Sequence record: MT833387.1
DNA: 39,390 bases
Strand: one strand, 5' to 3'
Origin: Escherichia phage HF4s
Positions 1 to 39,390 of the stretch are shown here, piece by piece. The first letter of the stretch is position 1. Each line of letters opens with the position of its first letter. The translations under genes and the position numbers were made by a program. The notes beneath the pieces are model-generated. The model was given only the letters and a program-made list of their open reading frames with translations, had not been told where the DNA came from and searched no databases.

Positions 1-13
1 AAGTGAGATAAAT

Positions 14-436
14 ATGGCGACTGAACCAAAAGCTGGTCGCCCCTCTGATTATATGCCGGAGGTGGCTGACGATATCTGCTCGTTGCTTTCTTCTGGCGAA
101 AGTTTGCTGAAAGTATGTAAGCGTCCTGGTATGCCGGATAAGTCCACTGTTTTCCGCTGGTTGGCAAAGCATGAGGATTTTCGCGACAAGTACGCGAAGG
201 CAACTGAGGCACGAGCTGATTCTATTTTCGAAGAGATATTCGAAATTGCTGACAATGCGATTCCAGATGCTGCTGAGGTGGCAAAGGCAAGACTTCGCGT
301 TGATACCCGCAAATGGGCGCTGGCCCGAATGAATCCCCGTAAGTATGGCGACAAGGTAACTAACGAGCTTGTCGGTAAGGACGGCGGCGCAATCCAGATT
401 GAAACATCACCGATGAGCACTCTATTCGGAAAATGA
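14..436 (+). CDS. terminase small subunit (Sf6 gp1 / P22 gp3 type)
   Basis: 140-aa ORF opening the morphogenesis block, 4-nt overlap with the large terminase; size and position match Sf6-type TerS. Confidence 0.85.
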   Translation: MATEPKAGRPSDYMPEVADDICSLLSSGESLLKVCKRPGMPDKSTVFRWLAKHEDFRDKYAKATEARADSIFEEIFEIADNAIPDAAEVAKARLRVDTRKWALARMNPRKYGDKVTNELVGKDGGAIQIETSPMSTLFGK

Positions 437-1845
437 CCTCGATTAATCCTATCTTTGAACCGTTCATTAAGGCGCATCGCTACAAAGTCGCCAAAGGCGG
501 TCGAGGTAGCGGTAAATCATGGGCAATTGCGAGGCTGCTTGTTGAAGCGGCGCGTCGGCAGCCGGTGCGTATTCTCTGCGCTCGTGAACTGCAAAACAGT
601 ATCAGCGATTCGGTAATCCGGTTGCTTGAAGACACCATAGAGCGGGAAGGGTATTCGGCCGAGTTTGAAATTCAGCGTTCCATGATTCGTCATCTCGGAA
701 CTAATGCTGAGTTCATGTTCTACGGCATCAAAAACAACCCGACAAAGATTAAATCGCTCGAAGGTATTGATATCTGCTGGGTGGAGGAAGCGGAAGCGGT
801 AACGAAGGAATCGTGGGATATTCTGATACCAACCATCCGTAAGCCGTTCTCTGAAATATGGGTAAGCTTCAACCCGAAAAACATCCTCGACGATACCTAT
901 CAGCGATTCGTCGTAAACCCTCCTGATGATATTTGTCTGCTGACGGTGAACTACACCGACAACCCGCACTTTCCTGAAGTTCTCCGTCTGGAGATGGAAG
1001 AGTGTAAACGCAGAAATCCGACACTGTATCGTCACATCTGGCTTGGTGAGCCAGTAAGCGCAAGTGATATGGCAATCATCAAACGTGAATGGCTTGAAGC
1101 CGCAACCGATGCGCACAAGAAACTCGGATGGAAAGCGAAAGGCGCTGTTGTCTCTGCGCATGACCCATCAGATACAGGGCCAGATGCTAAAGGTTATGCA
1201 TCGCGTCACGGTTCGGTAGTTAAGCGCATTGCCGAAGGTCTGCTGATGGACATCAATGAAGGTGCTGACTGGGCTACTTCGCTGGCAATTGAAGACGGCG
1301 CTGACCATTACCTGTGGGATGGTGATGGCGTCGGTGCGGGCCTACGCCGACAGACAACGGAAGCGTTCTCCGGCAAGAAAATCACCGCCACGATGTTCAA
1401 GGGTAGCGAATCGCCATTCGATGAAGATGCATCGTACCAGGCCGGAGCATGGGCTGATGAAGTCGTACAGGGTGACAACGTTCGCACTATTGGCGATGTG
1501 TTCCGCAATAAGCGAGCGCAATTCTATTACGCGCTGGCTGACAGGCTGTATCTGACATATCGGTCGGTTGTCCACGGTGAGTATGCAGACCCCGACGACA
1601 TGCTGAGTTTCGACAAAGAAGCGATAGGCGAGAAGATGCTGGAGAAGCTGTTTGCAGAACTGACGCAGATTCAGCGCAAATTCAATAACAACGGGAAGCT
1701 GGAGCTAATGACTAAGGTCGAAATGAAGCAGAAGCTCGGTATTCCATCTCCTAACCTGGCTGATGCGCTGATGATGTGTATGCATTGCCCGGCATTGGTC
1801 CGCGAAGAAACAGAAATATACGTTCCCTCATCCTCCGGTTGGTAA
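433..1845 (+). CDS. terminase large subunit
   Basis: 470 aa; N-terminal Walker A (GGRGSGKS) ATPase followed by nuclease-like C-terminal half; position after TerS. Confidence 0.93.
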   Translation: MTSINPIFEPFIKAHRYKVAKGGRGSGKSWAIARLLVEAARRQPVRILCARELQNSISDSVIRLLEDTIEREGYSAEFEIQRSMIRHLGTNAEFMFYGIKNNPTKIKSLEGIDICWVEEAEAVTKESWDILIPTIRKPFSEIWVSFNPKNILDDTYQRFVVNPPDDICLLTVNYTDNPHFPEVLRLEMEECKRRNPTLYRHIWLGEPVSASDMAIIKREWLEAATDAHKKLGWKAKGAVVSAHDPSDTGPDAKGYASRHGSVVKRIAEGLLMDINEGADWATSLAIEDGADHYLWDGDGVGAGLRRQTTEAFSGKKITATMFKGSESPFDEDASYQAGAWADEVVQGDNVRTIGDVFRNKRAQFYYALADRLYLTYRSVVHGEYADPDDMLSFDKEAIGEKMLEKLFAELTQIQRKFNNNGKLELMTKVEMKQKLGIPSPNLADALMMCMHCPALVREETEIYVPSSSGW

Positions 1846-1847
1846 AC

Positions 1848-3973
1848 ATGGCAGAGACATTAGAGAAAAACATGAGCGGATCATGCTCAGGTTTGACCGC
1901 GCCTATTCTCCACAGAAGGAAGTGCGCGAAAAGTGCATTGAAGCTACGAGGTTTGCTCGTGTCCCCGGAGGTCAATGGGAAGGAGCAACGGCGGCTGGAA
2001 CTAAGCTTGATGAGCAGTTAGAGAAGTATCCTAAGTTTGAAATCAATAAGGTAGCAACTGAACTTAACCGCATCATTGCAGAATACCGCAATAACAGAAT
2101 CACTGTTAAGTTTCGTCCTGGTGACAGAGAGGCAAGCGAAGAGTTAGCCAATAAATTAAATGGTCTGTTCCGTGCTGACTACGAAGAAACTGATGGCGGT
2201 GAGGCTTGTGATAATGCATTTGACGACGCTGCTACTGGTGGTTTCGGTTGCTTCCGTTTGACGTCGATGCTGGTCAATGAATACGACCCCATGGACGATC
2301 GTCAGCGTATTGCTATTGAACCAATATACGACCCGTCGCGCTCTGTGTGGTTTGACCCTGACGCTAAGAAGTACGACAAATCTGACGCGTTGTGGGCGTT
2401 CTGCATGTATTCGTTGTCACCTGAAAAATATGAGGCTGAATACGGAAAGAAACCTCCTGCTTCTCTGGATGTAACGTCTATGACCAGTTGGGAATATGAC
2501 TGGTTTGATGAAGATGTTATTTACATAGCGAAGTATTACGAAGTTCGTAAAGAGTCTGTTGACGTCATCAGTTATCGACATCCAATCACTGGAGAGATTG
2601 CAACATACGACAGTGATCAGGTTGAAGATATTGAAGATGAACTGGCAATAGCTGGATTTCATGAAGTGGCAAGGCGCTCAGTGAAGCGCCGTCGTGTGTA
2701 TGTATCCGTAGTGGATGGTGATGGTTTCCTTGAGAAACCTCGACGTATTCCTGGTGAACATATCCCCCTCATCCCGGTTTATGGAAAACGCTGGTTCATT
2801 GATGACATTGAGCGTGTCGAAGGGCACATTGCAAAAGCAATGGATCCACAACGTTTGTACAACCTTCAGGTTTCAATGCTGGCTGATACTGCAGCGCAAG
2901 ACCCCGGTCAGATCCCTATAGTTGGCATGGAGCAAATTCGTGGACTTGAGAAGCACTGGGAGGCTCGCAACAAGAAACGCCCAGCGTTCTTGCCGTTGCG
3001 CGAAGTGAGAGATAAATCTGGCAACATTATCGCTGGAGCTACCCCTGCAGGATATACACAGCCTGCGGTTATGAATCAGGCATTGGCTGCATTACTACAG
3101 CAAACCAGTGCAGATATTCAGGAGGTTACAGGCGGCAGTCAGGCCATGCAGCAGATGCCAAGTAATATTGCTCAGGAAACGGTTAACAACTTGATGAACA
3201 GAGCAGATATGGCTTCGTTTATCTATCTGGACAATATGGCGAAAAGTCTTAAACGCGCTGGTGAAGTATGGCTGTCAATGGCGCGTGAAGTGTACGGTTC
3301 AGAACGTGAAGTGCGCATCGTTAACGAAGATGGAAGTGATGATATCGCTGTCCTGAGCGCACAGGTTGTTGACAGGCAAACAGGGGCTGTTGTTGCGTTA
3401 AATGACCTTTCTGTCGGTCGATACGATGTGACGGTTGATGTTGGACCAAGCTACACAGCACGACGTGATGCAACGGTTTCTGTACTGACAAATGTCCTTA
3501 GCTCTATGCTTCCAACAGACCCAATGCGCCCGGCAATTCAGGGTATTATTCTGGACAATATCGATGGCGAAGGCCTTGATGACTTCAAAGAGTACAACCG
3601 AAACCAACTGCTGATATCTGGTATTGCAAAACCACGCAATGAGAAAGAGAAGCAGATTGTTCAACAGGCGCAAATGGCAGCACAAAGCCAGCCAAATCCT
3701 GAAATGGTTCTCGCTCAGGCGCAAATGGTAGCAGCGCAGGCAGAAGCGCAAAAAGCAACTAACGAAACTGCTCAAACTCAAATCAAAGCATTTACTGCCC
3801 AGCAGGATGCGATGGAGAGTCAGGCAAACACTGTCTATAAACTGGCTCAAGCCAGAAACATCGATGACAAAGCAGTGATGGAGGCAATACGCCTTCTGAA
3901 AGATGTCGCCGAGTCACAACAACAGCAATTCCAGTCACCACCACAGTCACCGGCAGACTTAATGCCGAGTTAA
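1848..3973 (+). CDS. portal protein (P22 gp1 / Sf6 gp3 type), N-terminus disrupted by apparent frameshift
   Basis: Longest intact ORF is 1883..3973 (696 aa), with an N-terminal region aligning to P22 portal. An ATG at 1848 with MAETLEKN lies 3 nt after the terL stop in another frame; restoring one A in the A5 run 1866-1870 gives MAETLEKKHERIMLRFD, co-linear with the P22 portal N-terminus. Confidence 0.85.
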
Positions 3974-3986
3974 CCAGGAGTAATCA

Positions 3987-4870
3987 ATGGAAAACGAACT
4001 GATCATCGACGGTCAGGTTATTGACCTGTCTGAAACACAGGAAAATGCAGAAGAAACCATCATCCAAACAGAGTCACAGCCTGAGAATGAAAGCCAGGAT
4101 GACAACGGAAAAGAGATGGCAACTGATCCTGAAAAACCGAAGAGACACCAGAAGATTACGCCTTGCGTATTGGTGATGAAGAAATTCAGCTTAACGCTGA
4201 CGATGATGATCACATTGACGGGCAACCTGCACCGCAATGGGTGAAAGATCTTCGCAAAGGCTTCAAAGAAACACAGAAAGAAAACCGTGAGTTGCGCCGC
4301 CAGCTTGAGGAAGCATTAGCCAAGCCTGCGGAACATCAGCAACCACAACCAGACGCTATTCCACCAAAACCGACTCTTGAGTCGTGTGATTATGACGAAC
4401 AGGCGTTTGAACAGGCATTGACTGATTGGCATGAGAAAAAAGGCCGTGTCGAACAGCAGCAGCAACAAAAACTACGTCAGCAACAGGAATACCAACAGCG
4501 TTTCCAGCAAAGGGTAGAAGCGCATAAACAACGGGCAGCCAAACTTCCTGTGAAAGATTATCAGGAAATGGAGGCCATTGTTCTTAGTGAGCTACCACCA
4601 ATTCAGCAGGAAATCATCATTCACTGTGCAGACGAAGGCTCTGAACTACTCGCCTATGGCTTAGGTAAGAGCCAGCAATTACGCCAGCGTGTAGCCGCTG
4701 AGACAGATCCAATTCGCGCAGCATTCCTCTTGGGGCAGATTAGCAAACAGGTAAGCCTTGCTCCAAAACCAAAGAAAGCCATCAAGCCAGAGCCGGAAGT
4801 ACGTGGTGGCGGTGCTGATGCGAAACAAGACGAATTCAACAAATTATGCCCCGGCGCAAAAATCGAATAA
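3987..4870 (+). CDS. scaffolding protein (P22 gp8-like), split by apparent frameshift
   Basis: Two overlapping ORFs (3987..4244 and 4163..4870 with a TTG start) between portal and coat; acidic N-terminus and charged helical C-terminus typical of scaffold; frame change at the A5 run 4132-4136. Confidence 0.7.
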
Positions 4871-4881
4871 GGAAAAGATAA

Positions 4882-6153
4882 ATGCCTAACAATCTCGACA
4901 GTAACGTCAGTCAAATCGTTCTGAAAAAATTCCTTCCGGGTTTTATGTCAGATTTAGTTCTGGCGAAAACCGTAGACCGTCAGTTGCTGGCAGGTGAAAT
5001 CAACTCCAGCACTGGCGATAGCGTTAGCTTTAAACGTCCGCATCAATTCTCATCCCTCCGTACTCCCACTGGTGATATTTCAGGGCAAAATAAAAACAAC
5101 CTGATCTCAGGTAAAGCTACGGGGCGTGTAGGTAACTACATCACTGTTGCTGTTGAATATCAGCAACTGGAGGAAGCGATCAAGCTTAACCAACTGGAAG
5201 AAATTCTCGCGCCGGTTCGCCAGCGAATCGTTACCGACCTTGAAACAGAGCTTGCTCACTTCATGATGAATAACGGTGCGTTGTCACTTGGTAGCCCCAA
5301 TACTCCAATCACCAAATGGTCTGATGTTGCGCAGACGGCATCTTTCCTGAAAGACCTCGGCGTTAATGAAGGTGAAAACTATGCTGTAATGGATCCATGG
5401 TCTGCACAGCGACTTGCTGATGCGCAGACTGGTTTGCACGCTTCAGATCAATTGGTTCGTACTGCATGGGAGAATGCGCAGATTCCAACCAATTTTGGCG
5501 GCATTCGCGCACTGATGTCTAATGGGCTTGCCTCTCGTACGCAGGGGGCATTTGGCGGAACACTGACAGTCAAAACACAGCCAACTGTTACCTATAACGC
5601 AGTTAAAGACTCATACCAGTTCACTGTAACATTGACCGGAGCGACAGCCAGCATTACAGGTTTTCTGAGAGCTGGTGATCAGGTTAAATTCACCAATACC
5701 TACTGGCTGCAACAGCAGACCAAACAGGCGTTGTATAACGGAGCCACACCAATTAGCTTCACTGCAACGGTTACTGCTGATGCTAATTCAGACAGCAGTG
5801 GCGATGTGACGGTTACGCTTTCTGGTGTTCCGATTTATGACACGACAAACCCGCAGTACAACTCTGTAAGTCGTCAGGTAGCGGCAGGCGATGCCGTATC
5901 TGTAGTAGGCACTGCTAGCCAGACAATGAAGCCAAACCTGTTCTATAACAAGTTCTTCTGTGGACTTGGCTCTATCCCACTGCCGAAACTGCACAGTATT
6001 GATTCTGCTGTTGCAACATATGAAGGTTTCTCCATCCGCGTACATAAATACGCAGATGGCGATGCCAACGTGCAAAAAATGCGCTTTGACTTACTGCCTG
6101 CATATGTGTGCTTTAACCCTCACATGGGCGGTCAGTTCTTCGGTAATCCGTAA
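4882..6153 (+). CDS. major capsid (coat) protein, P22 gp5 / Sf6 gp5 type
   Basis: 423 aa, directly after scaffold with a strong RBS; length and position match the P22-like coat. Confidence 0.9.
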   Translation: MPNNLDSNVSQIVLKKFLPGFMSDLVLAKTVDRQLLAGEINSSTGDSVSFKRPHQFSSLRTPTGDISGQNKNNLISGKATGRVGNYITVAVEYQQLEEAIKLNQLEEILAPVRQRIVTDLETELAHFMMNNGALSLGSPNTPITKWSDVAQTASFLKDLGVNEGENYAVMDPWSAQRLADAQTGLHASDQLVRTAWENAQIPTNFGGIRALMSNGLASRTQGAFGGTLTVKTQPTVTYNAVKDSYQFTVTLTGATASITGFLRAGDQVKFTNTYWLQQQTKQALYNGATPISFTATVTADANSDSSGDVTVTLSGVPIYDTTNPQYNSVSRQVAAGDAVSVVGTASQTMKPNLFYNKFFCGLGSIPLPKLHSIDSAVATYEGFSIRVHKYADGDANVQKMRFDLLPAYVCFNPHMGGQFFGNP

Positions 6154-6159
6154 TAACAA

Positions 6160-6177
6160 GGGGCTTCCGCCCCTTTT
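6160..6177 (+). terminator. intrinsic terminator-like hairpin after the coat gene
   Basis: GGGGC-ttcc-GCCCC stem-loop followed by TTTT, 7 nt after the coat stop. Confidence 0.5.
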
Positions 6178-6195
6178 ATGTTTTAAGGAAACAAT

Positions 6196-6381
6196 ATGGA
6201 TCGCATGAGTGTATTCCTTGCCGCAGATAACGAATCCGGACATGTACAGGCCGTTATCGCAGAAAAAGACTTCCAGTTTTTCGAAAAGTTGGGCTTTGTT
6301 GCCTCAGTTGATGAATTGAAACCGACCAGTAAGCGAGGTCGTAAGGCGGCAGACAATGGCAACAGTACTGACAAAGGGTGA
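6196..6381 (+). CDS. small hypothetical protein (Sf6 gene 6 position)
   Basis: 61-aa ORF between coat and the gp4-like gene, with RBS; overlaps the next gene by 26 nt. Confidence 0.5.
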   Translation: MDRMSVFLAADNESGHVQAVIAEKDFQFFEKLGFVASVDELKPTSKRGRKAADNGNSTDKG

Positions 6382-6838
6382 GATCGTCCTTTTTGCGCTT
6401 CGTAAGTTTGCTATTGCTTCTAATGCATCGCTGACTGATGTTGAGCCGCAATCAATTGAAGATGGTGTAAATGATCTGGAAGATATGATGTCCGAGTGGA
6501 TGATTAACCCCGGCGACATTGGTTACGCTTTCGCAACTGGAGATGAGCAGCCATTACCAGATGATGAGTCAGGTCTTCCAAGAAAATACAAACACGCAGT
6601 AGGCTATCAGTTATTGCTGAGAATGCTATCTGATTACAGCCTTGAACCAACTCCGCAAGTTCTCAGTAACGCCCAACGCTCATATGATGCCTTGATGACC
6701 GACACTCTGGTTGTTCCTTCAATGCGACGACGTGGAGATTTTCCTGTATGGCAGGGTAATAAATATGACGTGTTCACATCTGACCGATATTATCCAGGCG
6801 ATCTCCCTCTGATTGATGGCGATATCCCAAACGCATAG
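6356..6838 (+). CDS. tail accessory / head completion protein (P22 gp4-like)
   Basis: 160 aa; N-terminus aligns with P22 gp4 (conserved ASxASLTDVEPQS motif). Confidence 0.8.
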   Translation: MATVLTKGEIVLFALRKFAIASNASLTDVEPQSIEDGVNDLEDMMSEWMINPGDIGYAFATGDEQPLPDDESGLPRKYKHAVGYQLLLRMLSDYSLEPTPQVLSNAQRSYDALMTDTLVVPSMRRRGDFPVWQGNKYDVFTSDRYYPGDLPLIDGDIPNA

Positions 6839-6846
6839 GTGAATAA

Positions 6847-8265
6847 ATGCCTATTCAGCAACTTCCGCTTATGAAAGGTGTCGGCAAAGACTTCCGAAAC
6901 GCTGACTATATCGACTATCTGCCAGTGAATATGCTGGCTACACCCAAAGAAATCCTGAACAGCAGCGGATATCTTCGCTCATTCCCTGGCATTGCCAAAC
7001 GCTCTGATGTGAACGGTGTATCTCGCGGCGTCGAGTACAACATGGCACAAAATGCTGTTTATCGCGTGTGTGGTGGCAAGCTGTACAAAGGCGAAAGTGA
7101 AGTCGGTGACGTTGCCGGAAGTGGTCGCGTATCAATGGCGCATGGTCGAACATCACAGGCAGTAGGCGTTAATGGTCAACTGGTCGAGTATCGCTATGAT
7201 GGCACGGTTAAAACCGTCTCAAACTGGCCTACTGATAGCGGGTTCACTCAGTATGAGTTAGGCTCGGTCCGCGACATTACGCGCTTACGTGGGCGTTATG
7301 CGTGGTCAAAAGACGGAACTGATTCATGGTTTATCACTGACCTTGAAGACGAATCGCATCCTGACCGCTACAGCGCACAATATCGCGCAGAATCTCAGCC
7401 GGACGGCATCATCGGCATCGGAACATGGCGAGACTTCATCGTATGCTTTGGTTCATCAACGATTGAATATTTCTCCCTGACTGGGGCAACCACCGTTGGT
7501 GCCGCTTTGTATGTCGCACAGCCATCACTGATGGTGCAGAAAGGCATTGCCGGAACTTACTGCAAAACGCCATTCGCTGATTCTTATGCGTTCATCAGCA
7601 ATCCGGCAACAGGTGCGCCGTCTGTATATATCATCGGCTCCGGTCAGGTATCACCAATCGCCAGCGCGAGCATTGAGAAAATACTGCGCTCCTACACTGC
7701 TGATGAACTGGCTGATGGCGTGATGGAATCGTTGCGGTTTGATGCTCATGAGTTGCTGATTATTCACCTGCCGCGCCATGTTCTGGTGTACGACGCATCT
7801 TCAAGCGCCAATGGTCCGCAATGGTGTGTGCTGAAAACAGGCCTGTATGACGATGTGTACCGCGCTATCGACTTCATTTACGAAGGCAATCAGATAACAT
7901 GCGGCGATAAACTGGAATCCGTGACCGGGAAATTGCAGTTCGATATCAGCAGCCAGTATGGGCTACAGCAAGAACACCTGTTGTTTACACCACTCTTCAA
8001 AGCTGAGAACGCCAGATGTTTTGATCTGGAAGTTGAATCATCGACTGGTGTCGCTCAGTACGCTGACCGCCTGTTCCTCTCTGCAACCACTGACGGCATA
8101 AATTACGGACGTGAGCAGATGATTGAGCAGAATGAACCGTTCGTTTACGACAAACGCGTTTTGTGGAAGCGTGTCGGGCGAATCAGGAAAAATGTCGGCT
8201 TCAAACTTCGCGTTATCACGAAGTCACCTGTAACTCTGTCTGGCGCTCAGATAAGGATTGAGTAA
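6847..8265 (+). CDS. tail hub protein (P22 gp10-like)
   Basis: 472 aa, same length and position as P22 gp10. Confidence 0.8.
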
Positions 8266-8966: not shown

Positions 8967-9421
8967 TGATTACATTCAAACCAACGCGAAACATCGACCT
9001 GATCGAAGCAGTCGGAAATCACCCTGACATTATCGCCGGTAGCAACAACGGCGATGGATACGACTACAAACCTGAATGCCGTTACTTTGAGGTGAACGTG
9101 CACGGGCAGTTCGGCGGAATTGTTTACTATCAGGAGATTCAGCCGCTGACCTTTGATTGCCACGCCATGTACCTGCCAGAGATTCGCGGATTCAGCAAGG
9201 AAATCGGGCTGGCTTTCTGGCGATACATTCTGACGAACACCACCGTTCAGTGCGTCACATCGTTCGCTGCACGCAAATTCCGCCACGGGCAGATGTACTG
9301 CGCAATGATTGGCCTTAAGCGTGTAGGAACCATCAAGAAATACTTCAAAGGCGTGGATGACGTGACGTTTTACAGCGCCACACGCGAAGAACTAATCGAC
9401 TTCCTGAATCACGGGAGATAG
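8966..9421 (+). CDS. P22 gp14-like virion protein
   Basis: 151-aa ORF in the gp14 position between needle and ejection genes. Confidence 0.6.
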   Translation: MITFKPTRNIDLIEAVGNHPDIIAGSNNGDGYDYKPECRYFEVNVHGQFGGIVYYQEIQPLTFDCHAMYLPEIRGFSKEIGLAFWRYILTNTTVQCVTSFAARKFRHGQMYCAMIGLKRVGTIKKYFKGVDDVTFYSATREELIDFLNHGR

Positions 9422-30199: not shown

Positions 30200-30201
30200 T
30201 T

Positions 30202-31149
30202 ATGAGCAATACAGCAAAAATCTACGATTTCAGCGCCGCACACGAGCGCAGGAGCAACAGGATGGAGAACCAGAAAACTGGTTACATTCCGTTGTACCGG
30301 AGCATTCTGAAACAGTCATGGGCGAAAGATGTTTATCTTCGCACCCTGTGGGAAAACCTTCTCCTGAATGCCGCCAGAAAGCCATACAAAGCGAATTTCA
30401 AAGGTCATGAATGGCATCTGCAACCCGGTCAACTGGTTGTGACAGCAGCTGATTTAGGTCTTCAGTTATGCGACAGACATGGCAAGCCAGCAAGCCGTGA
30501 TCAGGTTGAGCGGATGCTTCAGGTTTTTGTGAAAGAGGGGATGATCTCCATTGATGGAGAGAAGCAAAAAGGTCGTGTGATCACCATCACAAATTACCAT
30601 GAATATGCTCAAAAAATGGACAATTTACCCGCACATGAAGCCGCACAAACAACCGCACATGATGCCGCACATGACGAAGCCAGTAATGGCGCGGATTTCA
30701 GCGCACATGCCGCACATGAAAGCGCACATGAAGCCGCACAAATAACCGCACATCATGAACAAGAAGGTATTAACAAGAATATAAATAATACCCCCCTACC
30801 CCCCAATGGGGGAGGCGATGGACAGGTTAAACCTGAACGTCGCAAGGCAGAACGAATCGACTACGAATCCTTCCTGAACGCCTACAACACCGAAGTCGGT
30901 GACAGACTGCCACACGCTGTTGCGGTCAACGAGAAACGCAAACGCCGCCTGAAGAAAATCATCCCGCAACTGAAAACGCCAAACGTGGACGGTTTCAGAG
31001 CGTATGTCAGGGCGTTTGTGCATCAAGCCAAGCCGTTTTACTTCGGAGACAACGACACGGGCTGGACGGCTGATTTTGATTACCTGCTGAGAGAAGACTC
31101 GTTAACGGGAGTTCGGGAAGGGAAGTTTGCAGACAGGGGGATTGCATGA
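30202..31149 (+). CDS. replication initiator (O-like) with internal origin iterons
   Basis: 315 aa; HTH-like N-terminal domain, central His/Ala-rich repeat encoded by DNA iterons, conserved C-terminal domain; coupled to the helicase gene. Confidence 0.8.
30627..30810 (+). repeat. origin of replication: ~7 iterons (GCACATGA core) plus A/T-rich segment
   Basis: Direct repeats CCGCACATGA(A/C/T) at 10-25 bp spacing inside the initiator gene, followed by an A/T-rich stretch and C6-tacc-C6-aat-G5. Confidence 0.7.
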
Positions 31150-32564
31150 GACAGGATATCGAAGCGAGCGTTATCGGTGGCCTGCTGATTGGTGGATTAA
31201 CTCCAACCGCCAGCGACGTTCTGGCAACGCTGGAGCCGGAAGCGTTTTCAATTCCGCTCTACCGGAAAGCCTTCGAGGTTATCCGCAAGCAGGCGAGAAA
31301 CAGAAACCTAATCGACGCGCTGATGGTTGCCGAGGCGTGCGGAGAGGAGCATTTCACGTCAATCCTGATGACCAGTAAGAACTGCCCGAGTGCCGCAAAC
31401 CTGAAGGGATATGCCGGAATGGTCGCGGATAACTATCACCGCCGTCTGGTGCTGGAAATCATGGATGAAATGCGTGAACCAATTCAGAGCGGAACCATCG
31501 ACGCATCGAGTCAGGCGATGGACGAGCTCGTAAAGCGTCTTTCAGCCATCAGAAAGCCCCGTGACGAGGTTAAACCTGTACGGTTAGGGGAAATCATCAC
31601 TGACTACACTGACACGCTTGACAGGCGTCTGAGGAACGGAGAGGAATCAGATACCCTGAAGACCGGAATCGAAGAACTTGACGCTATCACCGGAGGGATG
31701 AACGCAGAAGACCTGGTGATTATCGCCGCTCGTCCTGGTATGGGGAAAACCGAACTGGCTCTGAAGGTTGCCGAAGGCGTGGCAAGCCGCGTTATTCCTG
31801 GTTCTGACGTCCGGCGCGGGGTATTGATTTTCTCAATGGAAATGAGCGCATTGCAGATTGCAGAGCGAAGCATTGCCAACGCCGGGAGGATGTCGGTTAG
31901 CGTACTGCGAAATCCTGCATCGATGGATGACGAAGGCTGGGCGCGTGTTGCTAACGGCATGAGTCAGCTTGCGGATTTGGATGTATGGGTAGTCGATGCA
32001 TCGCGGTTATCGGTCGAAGAAATACGCTCAATCGCAGAACGGCACAAACAGGAAAATCCAAACCTGTCACTCATCATGGCGGATTATCTTGGCCTGATTG
32101 AGAAGCCGAAAGCAGACCGCAACGACCTCGCAATTGCTCACATCTCCGGAAGCCTGAAGGCGATGGCGAAAGACCTGAAAACGCCTGTTATCTCCCTGAG
32201 TCAGCTTTCGCGCGATGTTGAGAAGCGACCAAACAAACGCCCGACAAACGCAGATTTGCGTGATTCAGGAAGCATTGAACAGGACGCAGACTCAATCATC
32301 ATGCTCTATCGGGAAGCGGTATATGACGAGAACAGTAGCGCCGCGCCATTTGCTGAAATCATCGTGACGAAAAACCGTTTTGGCTCACTTGGTACGGTTT
32401 ACCAGCGGTTCTGTAACGGACACTTTGTTGCATGTGACCAGGATGAAGCCAGACAGATTGCACAGCATCAAATGCGCCTGCTGCGCGTGGCAGACGATAT
32501 GCACAAGGGGCGGACGTATGACCATCATACATCAGACGGGACGTATGACCATCTACATCACTGA
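31146..32564 (+). CDS. replicative DNA helicase, DnaB family (P22 gp12-like)
   Basis: 472 aa; Walker [10 protein letters not shown] and DnaB C-terminal motifs. Confidence 0.9.
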
Positions 32565-32574
32565 GCTAATAACA

Positions 32575-32601
32575 GGGGCTATTTACACAGTAGCCCTTTT
32601 T
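32575..32601 (+). terminator. intrinsic terminator (tR2-like)
   Basis: GGGCTA-9 nt loop-TAGCCC followed by TTTTT, directly after the helicase stop. Confidence 0.65.
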
Positions 32602-32628
32602 ATTGGATTAAGAACGAGGGGGATCCTG

Positions 32629-32841
32629 ATGGACACCGTTAACGGAATGTGTTCAGACGCACCGCGTGCCAAAAAATGTAAGTGCGGAAAATCACCGACA
32701 ATATTCGACATGGAGAACGGGTGCCAAATCTACTGCGCTAACCACGCTGTTGTGGCGGCCGCGAATTATCGCAGTGCGGTAACGGAGTGGAATAACCTGA
32801 AATCTGTTAGAGAGGGAAGTCATGAAAAAACTAACCTTTGA
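32629..32841 (+). CDS. small Cys-rich protein (NinA position)
   Basis: 70-aa ORF with CKCG...C..YC motif; overlaps the ninB start. Confidence 0.45.
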   Translation: MDTVNGMCSDAPRAKKCKCGKSPTIFDMENGCQIYCANHAVVAAANYRSAVTEWNNLKSVREGSHEKTNL

Positions 32842-33262
32842 AATTCGATCCCCAGCACATCAGCAAAACGCTATTCACGCAGTACAGCAAATTCTTCCAG
32901 ACCCAACCAAGCCAATCGTAGTGATCATTCAGGAGCGCAACCGCAGCTTAGACCAGAACAGGAAGCTATGGGCCTGCTTAGGTGACGTCTCTCGTCAGGT
33001 TGAATGGCATGGTCGCTGGCTGGATGCAGAAAGCTGGAAGTGTGTGTTTACCGCAGCATTAAAGCAGCAGGACGTTGTTCCTAACCTTGCCGGGAATGGC
33101 TTTGTGGTAATAGGCCAGTCAACCAGCAGGATGCGTGTAAGCGAATTTGCGGAGCTATTAGAGCTTATACAGGCATTCGGTACAGAGCGTGGCGTTAAGT
33201 GGTCAGACGAAGCTCGACTGGCTCTCGAATGGAAAGCGCGATGGGGAGATCGGGCAGCATGA
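32822..33262 (+). CDS. ninB: NinB recombination protein
   Basis: 146 aa, near-identical to lambda NinB. Confidence 0.92.
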   Translation: MKKLTFEIRSPAHQQNAIHAVQQILPDPTKPIVVIIQERNRSLDQNRKLWACLGDVSRQVEWHGRWLDAESWKCVFTAALKQQDVVPNLAGNGFVVIGQSTSRMRVSEFAELLELIQAFGTERGVKWSDEARLALEWKARWGDRAA

Positions 33263-33786
33263 CTATCAAATCAAATACGCCAGCACACGACAAGGACTGC
33301 TGGCAAACGCCGCTTTGGCTTTTTGATGCACTGGATATTGAGTTTGGATTCTGGCTGGATTCGGCAGCGAGCGACAAAAATGCTCTGTGTGCTCACTGGC
33401 TAACTGAGGCCGACGACGCGCTAAATTCTGAGTGGATAAGCCACGGTGCAATCTGGAATAACCCACCGTACAGCAATATCAGGCCGTGGGTGGAAAAAGC
33501 CGCTGAGCAGTGCATACAACAGCGACAGACGGTAGTTATGCTTGTGCCAGAGGATATGTCAGTCGGATGGTTCAGCAAGGCTCTGGAGAGTGTCGACGAA
33601 GTTCGCATTATCACTGATGGACGGATTAATTTTATCGAACCATCGACAGGGCTGGAGAAGAAGGGAAACAGCAAAGGCTCCATGCTGCTGATTTGGCGAC
33701 CGTTCATCAGTCCTCGACGGATGTTTACTACCGTATCCAAAGCGGCATTGATGGCGATCGGGCAGGGCGTCAGGAGGGCGGCATGA
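33259..33786 (+). CDS. phage DNA N6-adenine methyltransferase (Dam-type)
   Basis: ~175 aa with NPPY catalytic motif (IWNNPPYS); start overlaps the ninB stop. Confidence 0.75.
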
Positions 33787-33959
33787 GACGACAGCGACGA
33801 AGTTTCACCGACATCATCTGCGAAAACTGCAAATACCTTCCAACGAAGCGCTCCAGAAATAAACGCAAGCCAATCCCAAAAGAATCTGACGTAAAAACCT
33901 TCAATTACACGGCTCACCTGTGGGATATCCGGTGGCTAAGACATCGTGCGAGGAAATGA
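33783..33959 (+). CDS. ninE: NinE
   Basis: 58 aa, [23 protein letters not shown]... as in lambda NinE. Confidence 0.85.
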
Positions 33960-34345
33960 CAATGGATTATTCACAGTTAAGTGATTTTGAAATTAACGTG
34001 GCGGTATTCGAAGCCATTCATAACGGATCACCGGATTACAAAGAAGGTGAGAATGGCGATATGGTGTTTGTCTCATTTGAGGGAGACATTGTAAACGGAG
34101 ACGCAGTTGAAGTAGAAGTTGAGCGCGGATCATTTAACCCATGCGTAAACTCAGCAGACGCATGGCCGATTATCACTGAAAACAACATCAGCATAATTTT
34201 AGACAATCCCTCAATGCCGTGCGCCACAGACAACGCAAGGGACTTGTTTGATGATGCAGGACCGAATGTTGGTGTCGCATATGACAATCCACTCCGTGCC
34301 GCCATGATTGTCTTTCTCATGCTGCAGGACGCCAATAATGCTTAG
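33956..34345 (+). CDS. NinX-position protein
   Basis: 129-aa acidic ORF between ninE and ninF. Confidence 0.55.
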
Positions 34346-34514
34346 CCCATCCCAATCCATTCAATACCAGAAAGAAAGCGTCGAGCGAGCTTTAACGTGC
34401 GCTAACTGCGGTAAGAAGCTGCATGTGCTGGAAGTTCACGTGTGTGAGCACTGCTGCGCAGAACTGATGAGCGATCCGAATAGCTCAATGTACGAGGAAG
34501 AATACGATGGCTAA
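34338..34514 (+). CDS. ninF: NinF
   Basis: 58 aa, [25 protein letters not shown]... as in lambda NinF. Confidence 0.85.
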
Positions 34515-35118
34515 ACCAGCGCGAAGACGATGTAAAAACGAAGAATGTCGGGAATGGTTTCACCCTGCATTCGCTAATCAGTGGTGGTGCTCTCCAGAGT
34601 GTGGAACAAAGATAGCACTCGAACGACGAAGCAAAGAACGCGAAAAAGCGGAAAAAGCAGCAGAGAAGAAACGACGACGAGAGGAGCAGAAACAGAAAGA
34701 TAAACTGAAGATTCGAAAACTCGCCTTAAAGCCCCGCAGTTACTGGATTAAACAAGCCCAACAAGCCGTAAACGCCTTCATCAGAGAAAGAGACCGCGAC
34801 TTACCATGTATCTCGTGCGGAACGCTCACGTCTGCTCAGTGGGATGCCGGACATTACCGGACAACTGCTGCGGCACCTCAACTCAGATTTGATGAACGCA
34901 ATATTCACAAGCAATGCGTGGTGTGCAACCAGCATAAAAGCGGAAATCTCGTTCCGTATCGCGTCGAACTGATTAACCGAATCGGGCAGGAAGCAGTAGA
35001 CGAAATCGAATCAAACCATAAACGCCATCGCTGGACTATCGAAGAGTGCAAGGCGATCAAGGCGGAGTATCAGCAGAAACTCAAAGACCTGCGAAATAGC
35101 AGAAGTGAGGCCGCATGA
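34507..35118 (+). CDS. ninG: NinG (Rap) recombination-associated endonuclease
   Basis: 203 aa, lambda NinG-like with Cys clusters. Confidence 0.9.
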
Positions 35119-35321
35119 CGTTCTCAGTAAAAACCATTCCAGACATGCTCGTTGAAGCATACGGAAACCAGACAGAAGTAGCACGCAGACTGAAATGTAG
35201 TCGCGGCACGGTCAGAAAATACGTTGATGATAAAGACGGGAAAATGCACGCCATCGTCAACGACGTTCTTATGGTTCATCGCGGATGGAGTGAAAGAGAT
35301 GCGCTATTACGAAAGAATTGA
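35115..35321 (+). CDS. ninH: NinH
   Basis: 68 aa, lambda NinH-like ([36 protein letters not shown]...). Confidence 0.85.
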
Positions 35322-35970
35322 TGGCAGCAAATACCGAAATATTTGGGTAGTTGGCGATCTGCACGGATGCTACACGAACCTGATGAAAAAACTGGAGACG
35401 ATAGGATTCGACACCAAAAAAGACCTGCTTATCTCGGTTGGCGATTTGGTCGATCGCGGTACAGAGAACGTCGAATGCCTGGAATTAATCACATTCCCCT
35501 GGTTCAGAGCTGTACGTGGAAACCATGAGCAAATGATGATTGATGGCTTATCAGAGCGTGGAAACGTCAATCACTGGCTGCTTAATGGCGGTGGCTGGTT
35601 CTTTAATCTCGATTACGACAAAGAAATTCTGGCTAAAGCTCTTGCCCATAAAGCAGGTGAACTTCCGTTAATCATCGAACTGGTGAGCAAAGGTAAAAAA
35701 TATGTCATCTGCCACGCCGATTATCCTTGTGATAAATACGAGTTTGGAAAGCCAGTTGATCATCAGCAGGTAATCTGGAGCCGCGAACGAATCAGCAACT
35801 CACAAGACGGGATCGTGAAAGAAATCAAAGGCGCGGACACGTTCATCTTTGGTCATACGCCAGCAGTGAAACCACTCAAGTTTTCCAACCAGATGTATAT
35901 CGATACCGGCGCAGTGTTCTGCGGAAACCTCACATTGATTCAGGTACAGGGAGAAGGCGCGTGGGCATAA
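35299..35970 (+). CDS. ninI: Ser/Thr protein phosphatase NinI
   Basis: [24 protein letters not shown]... with GDLVDRG and GNHE metallophosphatase motifs, as in lambda PPase. Confidence 0.9.
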
Positions 35971-36479
35971 GAGAACTAAACCTCACCAAAGAGCAGCACG
36001 AGTGGCTGAATGGCTGGCTTGAACTGTGGGGCGCATGGGTTTATTCAGGTCGTCTGGAAAAGCGCATGAGCAGCGTAATAGCGAAGTTCATGGAGAGCGT
36101 AGAGCCGGGAAGAGTTATGACAAGGCCAATGTGCAATGATGATGATGGAATGTTGATTTCTCAGGTCGTCGATTCCGTCATGTACATCGACAAAAAAGCC
36201 TTTGGCATCCTCCTCAGCTACTACGCTCATGGTTCATCTAAGCGAGCAATTGCATCCTACTATCACGCGACTGCAAAGCCACGCAAGATGTGTGGACGTG
36301 GTGGCGAGGGATGGAGAAAACCTTCACTGGCAACCTGTAGAAACGAAATTGACGACATCCTGAAAGCGTCATTATTTGTTTTGTACCAACCAATGCAAAA
36401 TGCTTTCAAAATGCGTAAACGTGTTGAGAAAGTTAAGCATGTTGCTGTTAAAAACCTTGACATGCAATTAGCCATTTAG
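35961..36479 (+). CDS. Q: late-gene antiterminator Q (QuuD / phi21-Q type)
   Basis: 172 aa immediately upstream of the late leader and lysis cassette; shares LxxWGAW and PxCxDDD motifs with DLP12 QuuD-type Q proteins. Confidence 0.65.
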
Positions 36480-36496
36480 CCATAATTAGAGGGTAA

Positions 36497-36537
36497 GCTG
36501 CCGTTAGTGACTCTTAAGTTGCAACGGTGGCTTTTTT
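36497..36537 (+). terminator. tR'-like intrinsic terminator
   Basis: 9-bp stem with two G-U pairs followed by a T6 run, 18 nt after the Q stop. Confidence 0.55.
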
Positions 36538-36541
36538 ATTT

Positions 36542-36616
36542 GGGTCAGTCGTATAAAGGTCATTACGGAAGGCTGTTAACCTTCTTATCGTGGTTCGAGT
36601 CCACGCTGTCCCGCCA
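36542..36616 (+). tRNA. tRNA-Asn (anticodon GUU), phage-encoded
   Basis: Cloverleaf by hand: acceptor GGGTCAG/CTGTCCC (one mismatch), anticodon stem GAAGG/CCTTC with loop CTGTTAA, T-arm CGTGG-TTCGAGT-CCACG, encoded CCA. Confidence 0.55.
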
Positions 36617-36621
36617 AATAT

Positions 36622-36697
36622 GCTGGTTTAGCTCCAATGGTAGAGCAGTCGCCTTGTAAGCGAATGGGTAGCGGTTCAAGTCCGTTAACCAGCACCA
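36622..36697 (+). tRNA. tRNA-Thr (anticodon UGU), phage-encoded
   Basis: Perfect 7-bp acceptor GCTGGTT/AACCAGC, D-arm GCTC-CAATGGTA-GAGC, anticodon loop CTTGTAA, T-arm AGCGG-TTCAAGT-CCGTT, encoded CCA. Confidence 0.6.
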
Positions 36698-36939
36698 TAA
36701 CTGAGCCGTAGCCACTGGCTATCCTGAATTCATCAGTGATAGTTACGCTGCGGCCTTCTACACATGACCTTCGTGAAAGCGGGTGGCATGAGGTTGCGCT
36801 AACAACCTCCTGCCGTTTTGCCCGTGCATATCGGTCACGAACAAATCTGATTACTAAACACAGTAGCCTGGATTTGTTCTATCAGTAATCGACCTTATTC
36901 CTAATTAAATAGAGCAAATCCCCTTATTGGGGGTAAGAC

Positions 36940-37263
36940 ATGAAGATGCCAGAAAAACATGACCTGTTAGCCGCCATTCTCGCGGCAAAGGAACAAGGCA
37001 TCGGGGCAATCCTTGCGTTTGCAATGGCGTACCTTCGCGGCAGATATAATGGCGGTGCGTTTACAAAAACAGTAATCGACGCAACGATGTGCGCCATTAT
37101 CGCCTGGTTCATTCGTGACCTTCTCGACTTCGCCGGACTAAGTAGCAATCTCGCTTATATAACTAGCGTGTTCATCGGCTACATCGGTACTGACTCGATT
37201 GGTTCGCTTATCAAACGCTTCGCTGCTAAAAAAGCCGGAGTAGAAGATGGTGGAAATCAATAA
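36940..37263 (+). CDS. S: holin, lambda S type with dual start
   Basis: 107 aa, essentially identical to lambda S ([22 protein letters not shown]...); upstream stem-loop as in lambda. Confidence 0.95.
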
Positions 37264-37723
37264 TCAACGTAAGGCGTTCCTCGATATGCTGGCGTGGTCA
37301 GAGGGAACTGATAACGGACGTCAGAAAACCAGAAATCATGGTTATGACGTCATTGTAGGCGGAGAGCTATTCACTGATTACTCCGATCATCCTCGCAAAC
37401 TTGTCACGCTAAACCCAAAACTCAAATCAACAGCAGCCGGGCGCTATCAGCTTCTTTCCCGTTGGTGGGATGCCTACCGCAAGCAACTTGGCCTGAAAGA
37501 CTTCTCTCCGAAAAGCCAGGACGCTGTGGCATTGCAGCAGATTAAAGAGCGTGGCGCTCTACCGATGATTGATCGCGGTGATATTCGTCAGGCAATCGAC
37601 CGTTGCAGCAATATATGGGCTTCACTTCCGGGGGCTGGTTATGGTCAGTTCGAGCATAAGGCTGACAGCCTGATTGCAAAATTCAAAGAAGCTGGCGGAA
37701 CAGTCAGAGAGATTGAGGTATGA
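37247..37723 (+). CDS. R: endolysin, lambda R-type lytic transglycosylase
   Basis: 158 aa, near-identical to lambda R. Confidence 0.95.
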
Positions 37724-38157
37724 GCAGAGTAACCGCGATTATCTCCGCTCTGGTTATCTGCATCATCGTCTGTCTGTCATGGGCTGTTAATCACTACCGT
37801 GATAACGCCATCGCCTACAAAGAACAGCGTGATAAGGCCGCATCCATAATCGCTGATATGCAGAAGCGTCAACGTGATGTAGCAGAACTTGACGCCAGAT
37901 ACACAAAGGAGCTTGCTGATGCTAACGCGACTATCGAAAGTCTCCGTGCTGATGTTTCTGCTGGGCGTAAGCGCCTGCAAGTCGCCGCCACCTGTGCAAA
38001 GTCAACGACCGGAGCCAGCGGCATGGGCGATGGAGAAAGCCCAAGACTTACAGCAGATGCTGAACTCAATTATTACCGTCTCCGAAGTGGAATCGACAAG
38101 ATAACCGCGCAGGTTAACTACCTGCAGGAATACATCAGGACGCAATGCCTTCGATGA
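37720..38157 (+). CDS. Rz: spanin inner-membrane subunit Rz
   Basis: 145 aa; N-terminal TM helix identical to lambda Rz, divergent coiled-coil periplasmic part. Confidence 0.9.
37919..38104 (+). CDS. Rz1: spanin outer-membrane lipoprotein Rz1, embedded in Rz (+1 frame)
   Basis: Embedded ORF with signal peptide ending in lipobox-like VSAC followed by a Pro-rich segment. Confidence 0.75.
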
Positions 38158-38331
38158 TAGCGATAATTTTACTCATCATCCTTCACATCTGGCTCTGTAG
38201 ACAGGGTGATGATCACTTCTGGAGTGAATCCAGATTAAACATCTCATTGCTGATGCTTGATATTGAGCATCTTGCGCGCGGTAAGGGGCTGCGTTGAGAT
38301 AAGAGCCAGTCATTACAAATACCAGGATTTA

Positions 38332-38355
38332 GCCTCGCATTCGCGGGGCTTTTTA
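38332..38355 (+). terminator. intrinsic terminator-like hairpin
   Basis: 7-bp stem GCCTCGC/GCGGGGC with ATTC loop followed by TTTTT. Confidence 0.5.
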
Positions 38356-38375
38356 TTGCAACAAAGGTAAAGACG

Positions 38376-38663
38376 ATGGATGAAGAATATCGTAAAGACC
38401 TGCAACTGTGGTTTGGTCTTACGCATGCGCCGTTCTGCGTGATGCCGCGAGTATTCATGGAGGCTATGCCGCCAGAATGGCAAGAGAAGATGGCTCAGTT
38501 GCTTTTTGAGTATAGCGACACAATCAAAACGGATGTCTGCGGAGTTCACAGCTGTTTTGTTACTGCCAAAGACAGCAACAACCGCTTTATGAGGATGCCA
38601 GAAGATATTCTGAACTATCGTCATCCCCGACGTGAATTCATCGAATCAGTTCTGAAGAAGTAG
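38376..38663 (+). CDS. hypothetical lambdoid protein downstream of the lysis cassette
   Basis: 95-aa ORF with upstream AAAGG RBS. Confidence 0.55.
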   Translation: MDEEYRKDLQLWFGLTHAPFCVMPRVFMEAMPPEWQEKMAQLLFEYSDTIKTDVCGVHSCFVTAKDSNNRFMRMPEDILNYRHPRREFIESVLKK

Positions 38664-38909
38664 CCATTACAAAGCCTATCTACTGGTGGGCTTGATAATG
38701 AAACCAGAATTTATTCTTGGCAACCAGTTACGGCAGTACAGCGAAACAACCCAAGCCAGTAAGTGGGGAAATAACACTGGCAGCCACTGAAAGATGAACC
38801 TCCTGCCTTATGGCAAAAAGATTCTTTGTGGTGGCGGACTGATGGAAAGACATCTGTTATTGCAGAGACCATTCAATGAGTGGTCTCGACAATGGCTTAT
38901 ACCCTGCAC

Positions 38910-38935
38910 GGGATATCTTAACTGATATCCCTTTT
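38910..38935 (+). terminator. intrinsic terminator-like hairpin
   Basis: Perfect 8-bp inverted repeat GGGATATC-ttaact-GATATCCC followed by TTTT. Confidence 0.5.
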
Positions 38936-38956
38936 AACGGATAAACGGAGCCAACA

Positions 38957-39199
38957 ATGGCAGAGATTATTCCCATGACTGAAGAACAGAAATTCCAGTT
39001 AGAGATTTACAAGCTGGTAATGAACCAGAACGCAGCCGCAGAGGAAGCATTTCAATTCATCGGCACTGACGAGCTGAAGCTTGAGTTATTCAAAATTCAC
39101 TTCCAGTCAGGCGGCGCTAATTCAGATATCACGACCCGCACAATCGAAGCGGTACGTAAATCGAAGGAAGCGTTAGACCTGTTCACTACCGGAGCATGA
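38957..39199 (+). CDS. hypothetical protein
   Basis: 80-aa ORF upstream of terS. Confidence 0.5.
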   Translation: MAEIIPMTEEQKFQLEIYKLVMNQNAAAEEAFQFIGTDELKLELFKIHFQSGGANSDITTRTIEAVRKSKEALDLFTTGA

Positions 39200-39200
39200 T

Positions 39201-39380
39201 GTGAGCCGCGTAATCAATTTGGGTAAGGAGAAGAAATTTCCAATTACTCAAGAGCTATACGAGCGGCTGGAAAGCGTCATTCATGATTACGATGGTGAAA
39301 TCAGTTTATGCGAGGCGATTGGCACACTCGAATTGCTGAAGCAGTCACTGATTGAAGGCGCGAAAGAGTCCTCAACCTGA
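39201..39380 (+). CDS. hypothetical small protein (GTG start)
   Basis: 59-aa ORF starting at a GTG preceded by GGAG, 1 nt after the previous stop; last gene before terS on the circular map. Confidence 0.4.
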   Translation: MSRVINLGKEKKFPITQELYERLESVIHDYDGEISLCEAIGTLELLKQSLIEGAKESST

Positions 39381-39390
39381 AATGACAATT

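Follow-up and report, generated by a model that had tools for sequence, protein, structure and literature searches.

Escherichia phage HF4s (MT833387.1; the window analysed here is the whole 39,390-nucleotide record) is a new module combination of a well-known kind of phage, and in that sense it is ordinary. We put a probability of about 0.85 on HF4s being the complete circular map of a temperate, short-tailed P22-like phage of the Lederbergvirus Sf6/HK620/CUS-3 subgroup, with the usual lambdoid mosaic. That lambdoid and P22-like phages are mosaic has been textbook knowledge ever since the genomes of HK97/HK022, HK620 and Sf6 were published. No near-full-length match of ≥95% nucleotide identity to a deposited phage was found, the best being Sf6 at 59%, and HF4s is probably a new species by the 95% rule. 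P22-like phages have been described as mosaically related lambdoid members in which the assembly genes are conserved and the early and nin regions are mosaic (PMC2629481, which cites the Sf6 genome paper with ‘genetic mosaicism’ in its title).

The mosaic structure is evident from blastn comparison of HF4s with Sf6, lambda, P22, HK620 and CUS-3 (loci L001–L005). Sf6 covers 59% of HF4s at a mean identity of 95%, followed by CUS-3 (50% covered, 93% identity), HK620 (46%, 95%), P22 (30%, 82.5%) and lambda (11.7%, 94%), and 15% of HF4s is without a match in any of the five. Identity is bimodal, being either high (82–95% in covered segments) or absent, and one best partner gives way sharply to another, mostly at gene borders; a protein-level comparison agrees with this picture. 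A preliminary description of this DNA had proposed a module-level mosaic and suggested whole-genome comparison as the check. That comparison bears the proposal out, as uniform similarity to a single phage was not obtained.

Along the map, positions 14–8485 are closest to Sf6/HK620, the C-terminal part of the tail needle gene (8486–8965) is of HK620/CUS-3 type, gp12 passes from Sf6 to P22-like sequence, and gp13 matches Sf6 at only 86% nucleotide identity. No partner exists for 14003–17339; gtrB and gtrA are closest to P22 (75%), and int-attP-xis to Sf6/HK620/CUS-3. CUS-3 is the best partner across 20424–21194, 23928–27031 and 29507–33262, HK620 across 27538–29610 (99.1% identical to HK620 7454–9527, with a single indel), and Sf6, partly lambda, across 34372–38319. 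The switch from HK620 to CUS-3 coincides with the cII start codon, and the early-left ea region is the most reshuffled part, with 21195–23669 largely unmatched by the five references. No phage record among 50,697 searched covers ≥80% of either half of HF4s, and none of 5,426 complete E. coli genomes covers 80% of HF4s 11000–30000.

These alignments also change how the lambda-like segments should be read. The lysis and nin modules are indeed lambda-like, as the preliminary description had it, but they are not lambda parts newly joined to a P22-type phage, as Sf6 and CUS-3 match them at 97–98% nucleotide identity and lambda at 92–97%. By its alignments, HF4s belongs to the Sf6/HK620/CUS-3 group as a reshuffled member, and the nin and lysis modules are ones that this group itself has in common with lambda. 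The mosaic would have arisen through recombination among co-infecting phages and resident prophages, bringing together an Sf6/HK620 head; a tail, ejection, tailspike and gtrABC block common with uncharacterised E. coli prophages; the IntS-attP(argW)-TorI module; CUS-3-type recombination, cII, O, P and ninB genes; HK620 immunity; and nin, Q and lysis genes as in Sf6, partly near-identical to lambda.

The record is also closed and complete in gene content. Its genes fall into a rightward block from the small terminase to the tailspike (14–16042), a leftward block holding gtrC, int, the early-left genes and N up to cI (16069–29198), and a second rightward block of cro-cII-O-P-nin-Q, two tRNAs, S-R-Rz and small genes (29305–39380). 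In blastn, nucleotide 1 of the Sf6 record aligns with HF4s position 14, the two HF4s ends are contiguous in HK620 (HF4s 38720–39390 aligns with HK620 18995–19667, and HF4s 1–10286 with HK620 19668–29961), and the 15 nt bridging the ends match the Sf6 circular junction in length. Because the ends join seamlessly in both HK620 and Sf6, the record is a closed circular map opened at the conventional P22-like point; on these alignments it is opened just before the small-terminase gene, like the Sf6 record. All 14 genes of the P22-type virion assembly cluster are present in Sf6 order from terS to the tailspike, together with the lambdoid early order (int-xis ... cIII-N-cI-cro-cII-O-P-nin-Q-lysis) and a full regulatory set. 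P22-specific Pfam families were found on near-identical genes of an E. coli prophage (L007), and all tested HF4s open reading frames (ORFs) were assignable to an existing PHROG or Pfam family. The earlier view of the window as a self-contained, complete phage genome is thus upheld by the closed ends, the full gene set and the canonical order; the circular permutation it also mentioned is a property of virion DNA, which a sequence does not reveal.

Closure and gene content bear on whether the mosaic could be an assembly artefact, in which several co-resident lambdoid prophages were stitched together through high-identity segments. Lambdoid prophages do share long >95% stretches able to mislead assemblers, and most HF4s junctions adjoin such segments. 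We nevertheless consider an artefact of this kind very improbable, as the record holds exactly one copy of each lambdoid and P22 function in canonical order within a normal 39.4-kb genome, its ends close on themselves, and several of its junctions recur in independent assemblies. The C-terminal part of the tailspike, gtrCBA, intS and argW are contiguous in one E. coli genome (94.6% identity; L017, GCA_004172365.1); gtrB-gtrA-int-attP is present on two IMG/VR contigs (L013, L014); the tail-to-gtrA block recurs in four prophages (L007, L008, L016 and L019; 98.6–99.3%); N next to the HK620-type cI recurs in L010; and the chimeric N gene is found on four contigs. An exact 24-mer across the gtr/int junction had two matches in IMG/VR and none in a set of one-genome-per-species contigs.

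Relative to relatives that are 95–99% identical, HF4s carries nine one-base deletions, seven of them in A/T runs of ≥6 nt and two in short T runs. In the portal gene (~1865, A6 to A5) the long ORF restarts at ATG 1883 and encodes 696 rather than 708 aa; the scaffold gene (~4131, A6 to A5) is split into 3987–4244 and 4163–4870; gtrB loses one homopolymer base at ~18157; the single-stranded DNA-binding protein (SSB)-like gene (~24539) and the hkaS homologue (~28365) each go from T6 to T5; the C-terminus of P (~32457) goes from T3 to T2; and the remaining losses lie at ~26789 and ~32596 (homopolymers) and ~38309 (TT to T). The relatives encode intact products, including a 708-aa portal, a 294-aa scaffold and a 305-aa GtrB. 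In the 32.5 kb that could be aligned in blocks, 7 of the 30 reference runs of ≥6 nt lack one base in HF4s, all 72 5-mers escape shortening and lengthened runs are absent; isolated single-base deletions outnumber insertions by 11 to 4. This one-directional, run-length-dependent loss is the signature of homopolymer under-calling, and the six frameshifted genes very probably reflect sequencing errors, not biology. Programmed or otherwise meaningful frameshifting was rejected, since the shifts all go in one direction, track run length and do not occur in 99%-identical relatives. The HF4s record is unsuitable for gene-level work before its homopolymer frameshifts have been checked.

Read literally, the same deletions would make HF4s the accurate sequence of a decaying, defective prophage excised from a bacterial genome, with real frameshifts in portal, scaffold, P and gtrB. 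Six interrupted genes are what such a remnant might show, and cryptic remnants of one of its modules do exist, such as the tailspike C-terminal part with gtrCBA and intS at argW in the E. coli genome mentioned above (L017). A defective prophage is still an unlikely source, because the record closes at the terminase junction instead of ending at att sites, the pattern of losses (7 of 9 in runs of ≥6 nt, all of one base, with 5-mers untouched) is typical of base-calling error, and essential genes carry no larger deletions, insertion sequence (IS) elements or nonsense mutations, the sole truncated ORF (38376–38663) sitting in the variable lysis–terS region.

Several points weigh against reading HF4s as the map of an intact phage. 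Portal, scaffold, P, gtrB, the SSB-like gene and the hkaS-like gene are all disrupted as written, and the literal sequence would not give a viable phage; that the deletions are sequencing errors is most likely, as argued from relatives. Several junctions, especially in the ea region 21195–23669, were found in no independent contig, and exact-protein look-ups for the tailspike, the DUF551 protein, TerL and O returned no record. The host (E. coli or Shigella), inducibility and headful packaging, the last as known for Sf6 and suggested by 100% (TerS) and 99% (TerL) identity to the Sf6 terminase, are likewise inferred.

The largest segment without a reference partner holds the receptor-binding part of the tailspike and gtrC. 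The tailspike gene (13667–16042, +) encodes a P22-type head-binding domain (aa 1–115; PF09008, E = 1e-52; head-binding domains in the PDB, E = 1e-46 to 1e-51) followed by a beta-helix receptor-binding domain; an AlphaFold (AF2) model with a pLDDT of 79 folds as a parallel beta-helix and matches the tailspikes of HK620, Sf6 and P22 (10–18% identity). A strong, GC-rich bidirectional hairpin terminator with seven G-C pairs (16047–16064, both strands) separates it from a leftward, putative O-antigen glucosylation cassette of a gtrC-like gene (16069–17301, –; DUF6056/GT_STM0557_N), gtrB (17298–18214, –; GT2 bactoprenol glucosyltransferase type, frameshifted at ~18157 as written but uninterrupted, with 305 aa, in the prophages L007 and L008, which are 99.3% identical) and gtrA (18211–18573, –; flippase type), so that all three gtr genes lie between the tailspike and int. 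A sequence search with GtrC yielded no solved-structure relative. The gtr operons of Salmonella and P22 are phase-variable through Dam/OxyR; a brief look at the region upstream of gtrA in HF4s (18574–18706, –) found two GATC sites ~75 bp apart, with no four-GATC arrangement of the Dam/OxyR type evident. The gtrABC cassette, the tailspike receptor domain and the frameshifts are absent from the preliminary description and were found in the follow-up.

At the nucleotide level, positions 14003–17339, comprising the receptor domain and gtrC, matched neither the phage collection nor the complete E. coli genomes. Draft assemblies of E. coli do contain a tailspike ~100% identical to that of HF4s (P0001), and the exact GtrC sequence occurs on at least 20 E. 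coli contigs. In most such assemblies, the block corresponding to HF4s 8685–18680 is 98.6–99.3% identical and ends a P22-like prophage beside ybhB-bioA. The receptor domain is 85% identical to tail proteins of Enterobacter hormaechei phages with different N-terminal anchors, and this domain pattern is standard tailspike modularity. In one ybhB-bio prophage (L016, GCA_044739565.1), homology to HF4s runs on for ~110 bp beyond that in its relatives and enters the 3′ end of intS (L016 8511–8623, HF4s 18681–18790); this stretch may be left over from an earlier arrangement in which the gtr cassette was linked to IntS. We tentatively suggest, at somewhat less than even odds, that the receptor domain and the DUF6056-type GtrC form an uncharacterised pair for O-antigen recognition and modification that travels as one cassette among E. 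coli prophages with at least two integration sites, argW and the ybhB-bioA region. If so, HF4s would define a new serotype-converting specificity that crosses genera. The cassette may mark an uncharacterised O-antigen specificity of use in phage typing or host-range prediction; beyond that, HF4s adds one more combination to known mosaicism and its value is mainly for cataloguing.

Next to the gtr genes lies an IntS-type tyrosine integrase of the P4 family (18707–19864, –) with Arm-DNA-bind_3 (PF13356, DUF4102; E = 5.5e-25), Phage_int_M (PF22022; E = 6e-28) and Phage_integrase (PF00589; E = 5e-39) domains. It aligns end to end with P4 Int (35% identity, E = 4e-77), including the catalytic R, HxxR, H and Y residues (LRT/VRS, HGFR, LAH/LSH and IYNH/AYIH), and is 98–100% identical to the Sf6, HK620 and CUS-3 integrases. 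A lambda- or P22-type integrase was rejected, as neither Int showed significant similarity. The attP core (20026–20041, –), ~160 bp upstream of int, is the reverse complement of the last ~15 nt of the tRNA-Arg(CCU) gene argW, and homology with the E. coli locus L017 and the IMG/VR contigs L013 and L014 ends at 20039/20040, within the tRNA-Arg(cct) gene. Beyond it, a TorI/HkaC-type excisionase (recombination directionality factor; 20114–20314, –) is 100% identical in amino acids to Sf6 gp18 and HK620 HkaC, which are annotated as TorI. The attP core CTGCAGGGGACACCAT has been reported for KplE1, and the IntS/TorI module is conserved in KplE1, HK620, Sf6 and CUS-3, with experimental work on it from the K-12 remnant KplE1/CPS-53 (PMC2951348). 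The label ‘P4-like int/attP’ is therefore correct at the family level (35% identity to P4 Int, the same domains and a tRNA 3′-end core), and by homology the HF4s region is the standard IntS-attP(argW)-TorI module of the Sf6/HK620/CUS-3 group.

A second argW-derived 16-mer lies at 20334–20349, on the far side of the excisionase gene; its reverse complement, TTGCAGGTTCGATTCC, is the argW tRNA segment just 5′ of the true core and falls within the pI promoter region annotated in Sf6 and HK620. The CUS-3 record annotates this second 16-mer as ‘att core’ (L005 1–16 and 40192–40207) and contains no match to HF4s 20041–20333 (xis), and the two observations together suggest that the CUS-3 record may end ~300 bp short of the real attR.

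The early-left region continues leftward-transcribed with the ea genes (20372–24248, –; lambda orf-55-like, phrog_625, phrog_667, o63, DUF551, Ead/Ea22, o186 and abc2), followed by the CUS-3-type SSB-like gene (24272–24744, –; split by the deletion at ~24539), the CUS-3-type erf recombinase (24654–25259, –), kil (25516–25668, –; 100% identical in amino acids to Sf6 and CUS-3) and cIII (25653–25784, –; 43 aa, 100% identical to Sf6/CUS-3). The earlier grouping of cIII with the lambda-like genes did not hold, as identity to lambda is 69% over 35 aa; HF4s has the 43-aa Sf6/CUS-3 form, which shares only the central ESLLERITRKLRDGWKR helix with lambda. An Sf6 gp33-like coiled-coil protein (25809–26777, –) and a membrane protein related to Sf6 gp34 (26966–27415, –) follow, neither with a PADLOC match. 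The gp33-like gene is a single 322-aa ORF in HF4s and Sf6 and two annotated ORFs in CUS-3 (L005 35058–36027); one-base differences between HF4s and CUS-3 in this region lie at ~26441 and ~26789, and the CUS-3 record may carry a frameshift of its own in this gene. A PADLOC scan of 10 accessory proteins, including those encoded beside cI and N, gave two chance-level coiled-coil matches only, on which grounds a hidden defence system was rejected.

The antiterminator N (27424–27729, –) is a three-way intragenic chimera by alignment, with aa 1–63 of HK620/CUS-3 type, a middle of CUS-3 type and the last ~20 aa of Sf6 type. Four independent metagenome contigs, whose adjoining immunity regions differ, encode the identical N protein. 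As had been proposed, N differs in type from that of lambda, the match to lambda N being limited to the C-terminal ~35 aa (57%). With operator and nut coordinates transferred from the HK620 annotation, the immunity region comprises nutL (~27837–27878), PL/OL1-3 (~27917–27988), the hkaS homologue (28097–28464, with the T6-to-T5 frameshift at ~28365), cI (28482–29198; 100% identical in amino acids to HK620 and 43% to lambda cI), OR3-1/PR (~29209–29282), cro (29305–29499; 100% identical to HK620) and nutR/tR1 (~29506–29557).

Rightward of cro, cII (29608–29904, +) is of lambda/CUS-3 type and is followed by O (30202–31149, +) and a DnaB-type P (31146–32564, +), whose last ~20 codons are shifted by the deletion at ~32457. 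Within O, 30629–30771 holds two clusters of a 12-bp periodic repeat (CCGCACATGANG-like, ~9 copies) that look like the replication-origin iterons of a CUS-3/P22-type O protein. The nin region (32822–35970, +) encodes ninB, a dam methyltransferase (33259–33786), ninE, ninX, ninF, ninG, ninH and ninI. The statement that S, R, NinB/E/F/G/H/I and cII are lambda-like to near-identity is fair for most of them, with amino-acid identities to lambda of 99% (S, R and NinB), 98% (NinG), 100% (NinH), 95% (NinI and cII), 93% (NinE) and 85% (NinF). The ninG gene (34507–35118, +) is intact in HF4s and interrupted by IS911 in Sf6; two Sf6 alignment blocks overlap by 3 bp at 34605–34607, which may correspond to the IS911 target duplication.

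Q (35961–36479, +; PF06530) is 99% identical to Sf6 Q, which is annotated as phage 21-like, and 98% to CUS-3 Q, and is without a match to lambda, P22 or HK620 Q, in agreement with the earlier assignment to a type other than that of lambda. It is followed by PR′/qut/tR′ (~36457–36540, coordinates transferred from the Sf6 annotation), tRNA-Asn (36542–36616, +) and tRNA-Thr (36622–36697, +); an Rfam search of HF4s found no RNA family besides these two tRNAs. The lysis cassette (36940–38157, +) encodes an S holin with an MKM dual start, the R transglycosylase and Rz with an embedded Rz1 (~37919–38104); S and R are 98–100% identical to those of Sf6, HK620 and CUS-3, and Rz is of Sf6/CUS-3/P22 type (59% to lambda Rz). 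The small genes at 38145–39380 (+) comprise o50, a 95-aa remnant (38376–38663), hkbM (38957–39199) and hkbN (39201–39380). The 95-aa ORF (+) matches only positions 139–230 of the 233-position phrog_3527 and is a truncated gene remnant between lysis and terS.

The virion genes open with the small (14–436, +) and large (433–1845, +) terminase, respectively 100% and 99% identical in amino acids to those of Sf6 and HK620, and continue with the portal (1848–3973, +; 99%) and the scaffolding gene (3987–4870, +), whose reading frame is uninterrupted, at 294 aa, in Sf6 and HK620 as well as in the E. coli prophage L007. Coat (4882–6153, +), gp6 (6196–6381, +) and the homologues of P22 gp4 (6356–6838, +) and gp10 (6847–8265, +) are all 99–100% identical to Sf6 and HK620. 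The tail needle (P22 gp26 homologue; 8265–8966, +) has an N-terminal part as in Sf6 and a C-terminal part of HK620/CUS-3 type, with a junction near 8485; it is 94–97% identical to the HK620/CUS-3 needles versus 53% over 64% of its length to that of Sf6. The tail and ejection region comprises the P22 gp14 homologue (8966–9421, +), gp7 (9424–10116, +), gp20 (10126–11514, +; a hybrid with an Sf6-like N-terminal and a P22-like C-terminal half) and gp16 (11514–13511, +), and the block 8685–18680 is 98.6–99% identical to the E. coli prophages L016 and L019. The structural genes do follow the Sf6 order (genes 1–14), as previously described, but are not uniformly Sf6 in sequence: the needle C-terminus, the P22-like C-terminal half of gp12, gp13 (92%) and the tailspike, of which the head-binding domain alone is common, depart from it.

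Taken together, near-identity to studied genes suggests the following life cycle. IntS and TorI would integrate and excise the phage at the 3′ end of argW. HK620-type cI/cro, operators and nut sites would set immunity, and cI, cro, cII and cIII would govern the choice between lysis and lysogeny, with lambda-type cII and Sf6-type cIII establishing the latter. N would antiterminate early transcription and Q late transcription, and O, acting with its putative iterons, and the DnaB-type P would replicate the genome. The Sf6-type Q is predicted to drive late transcription through the two tRNAs and the lambda-type lysis genes into the head and tail genes, with DNA packaged by a headful mechanism. 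Expressed from the prophage, gtrABC would glucosylate the O-antigen targeted by the tailspike.

Among known systems, the Shigella phage Sf6 (Lederbergvirus Sf6, NC_005344) is closest in genome layout and record start point, sharing 59% of HF4s at 95% nucleotide identity, with 97–100% protein identity in genes 1–8, 10 and 11, int/attP/xis, kil/cIII/gp33, dam, ninG–ninI, Q and S/R/Rz; the two tRNAs are also common. Sf6 differs in having oac (O-acetyltransferase) where HF4s has gtrABC, in the tailspike receptor domain, needle knob, gp12 C-terminal part, ea genes and erf/ssb, in the N-terminus of N, the immunity region, cII, O and P, and in its IS911-interrupted ninG. HK620 (NC_002730) shares the head genes (95% nucleotide identity), the same IntS/attP/HkaC module and, at 99.1%, the immunity region (N N-terminus, hkaS, cI, cro, operators and nut sites), but differs in its tailspike, gp20, gp16, replication genes, nin content (roi, rusA), lambda-type Q and Rz, and is without gtrABC. 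CUS-3 (CP000711) shares abc2-erf-kil-cIII-gp33 and cII-O-P-ninB (97% nucleotide identity) as well as Q, the lysis genes and int, whereas its coat, scaffold and portal are of other types and it has an endosialidase tailspike, an ant/mnt region and P22-type immunity.

Lambda resembles HF4s in S, R, NinB/E/F/G/H/I and cII (85–100% protein identity; 11.7% of HF4s at 94% nucleotide identity), whereas its virion genes, int, Q, O, P and N (except the C-terminal ~35 aa) show no similarity, cI reaches only 43%, and the 69% identity of cIII is confined to the central helix. P4 has in common with HF4s a full-length related Int (35% amino-acid identity) with the same three Pfam domains and catalytic R..HxxR..H..Y, a tRNA 3′-end target and an attP core ~150 bp upstream of int, but the relation is distant and nothing else in HF4s is P4-like; the HF4s target is argW, and that of P4 is the tRNA gene leuX. 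Common to HF4s and KplE1/CPS-53 of E. coli K-12 are an integrase of the same architecture, a 16-bp core in the 3′ end of argW, an attP with int on one side and the excisionase gene on the other, and an int beside gtrA-gtrB-gtrC; E. coli GCA_004172365.1 (L017) shows this arrangement at its argW locus. Unlike the full-length HF4s, KplE1 is a remnant of 10 kb that lacks immunity and head genes.

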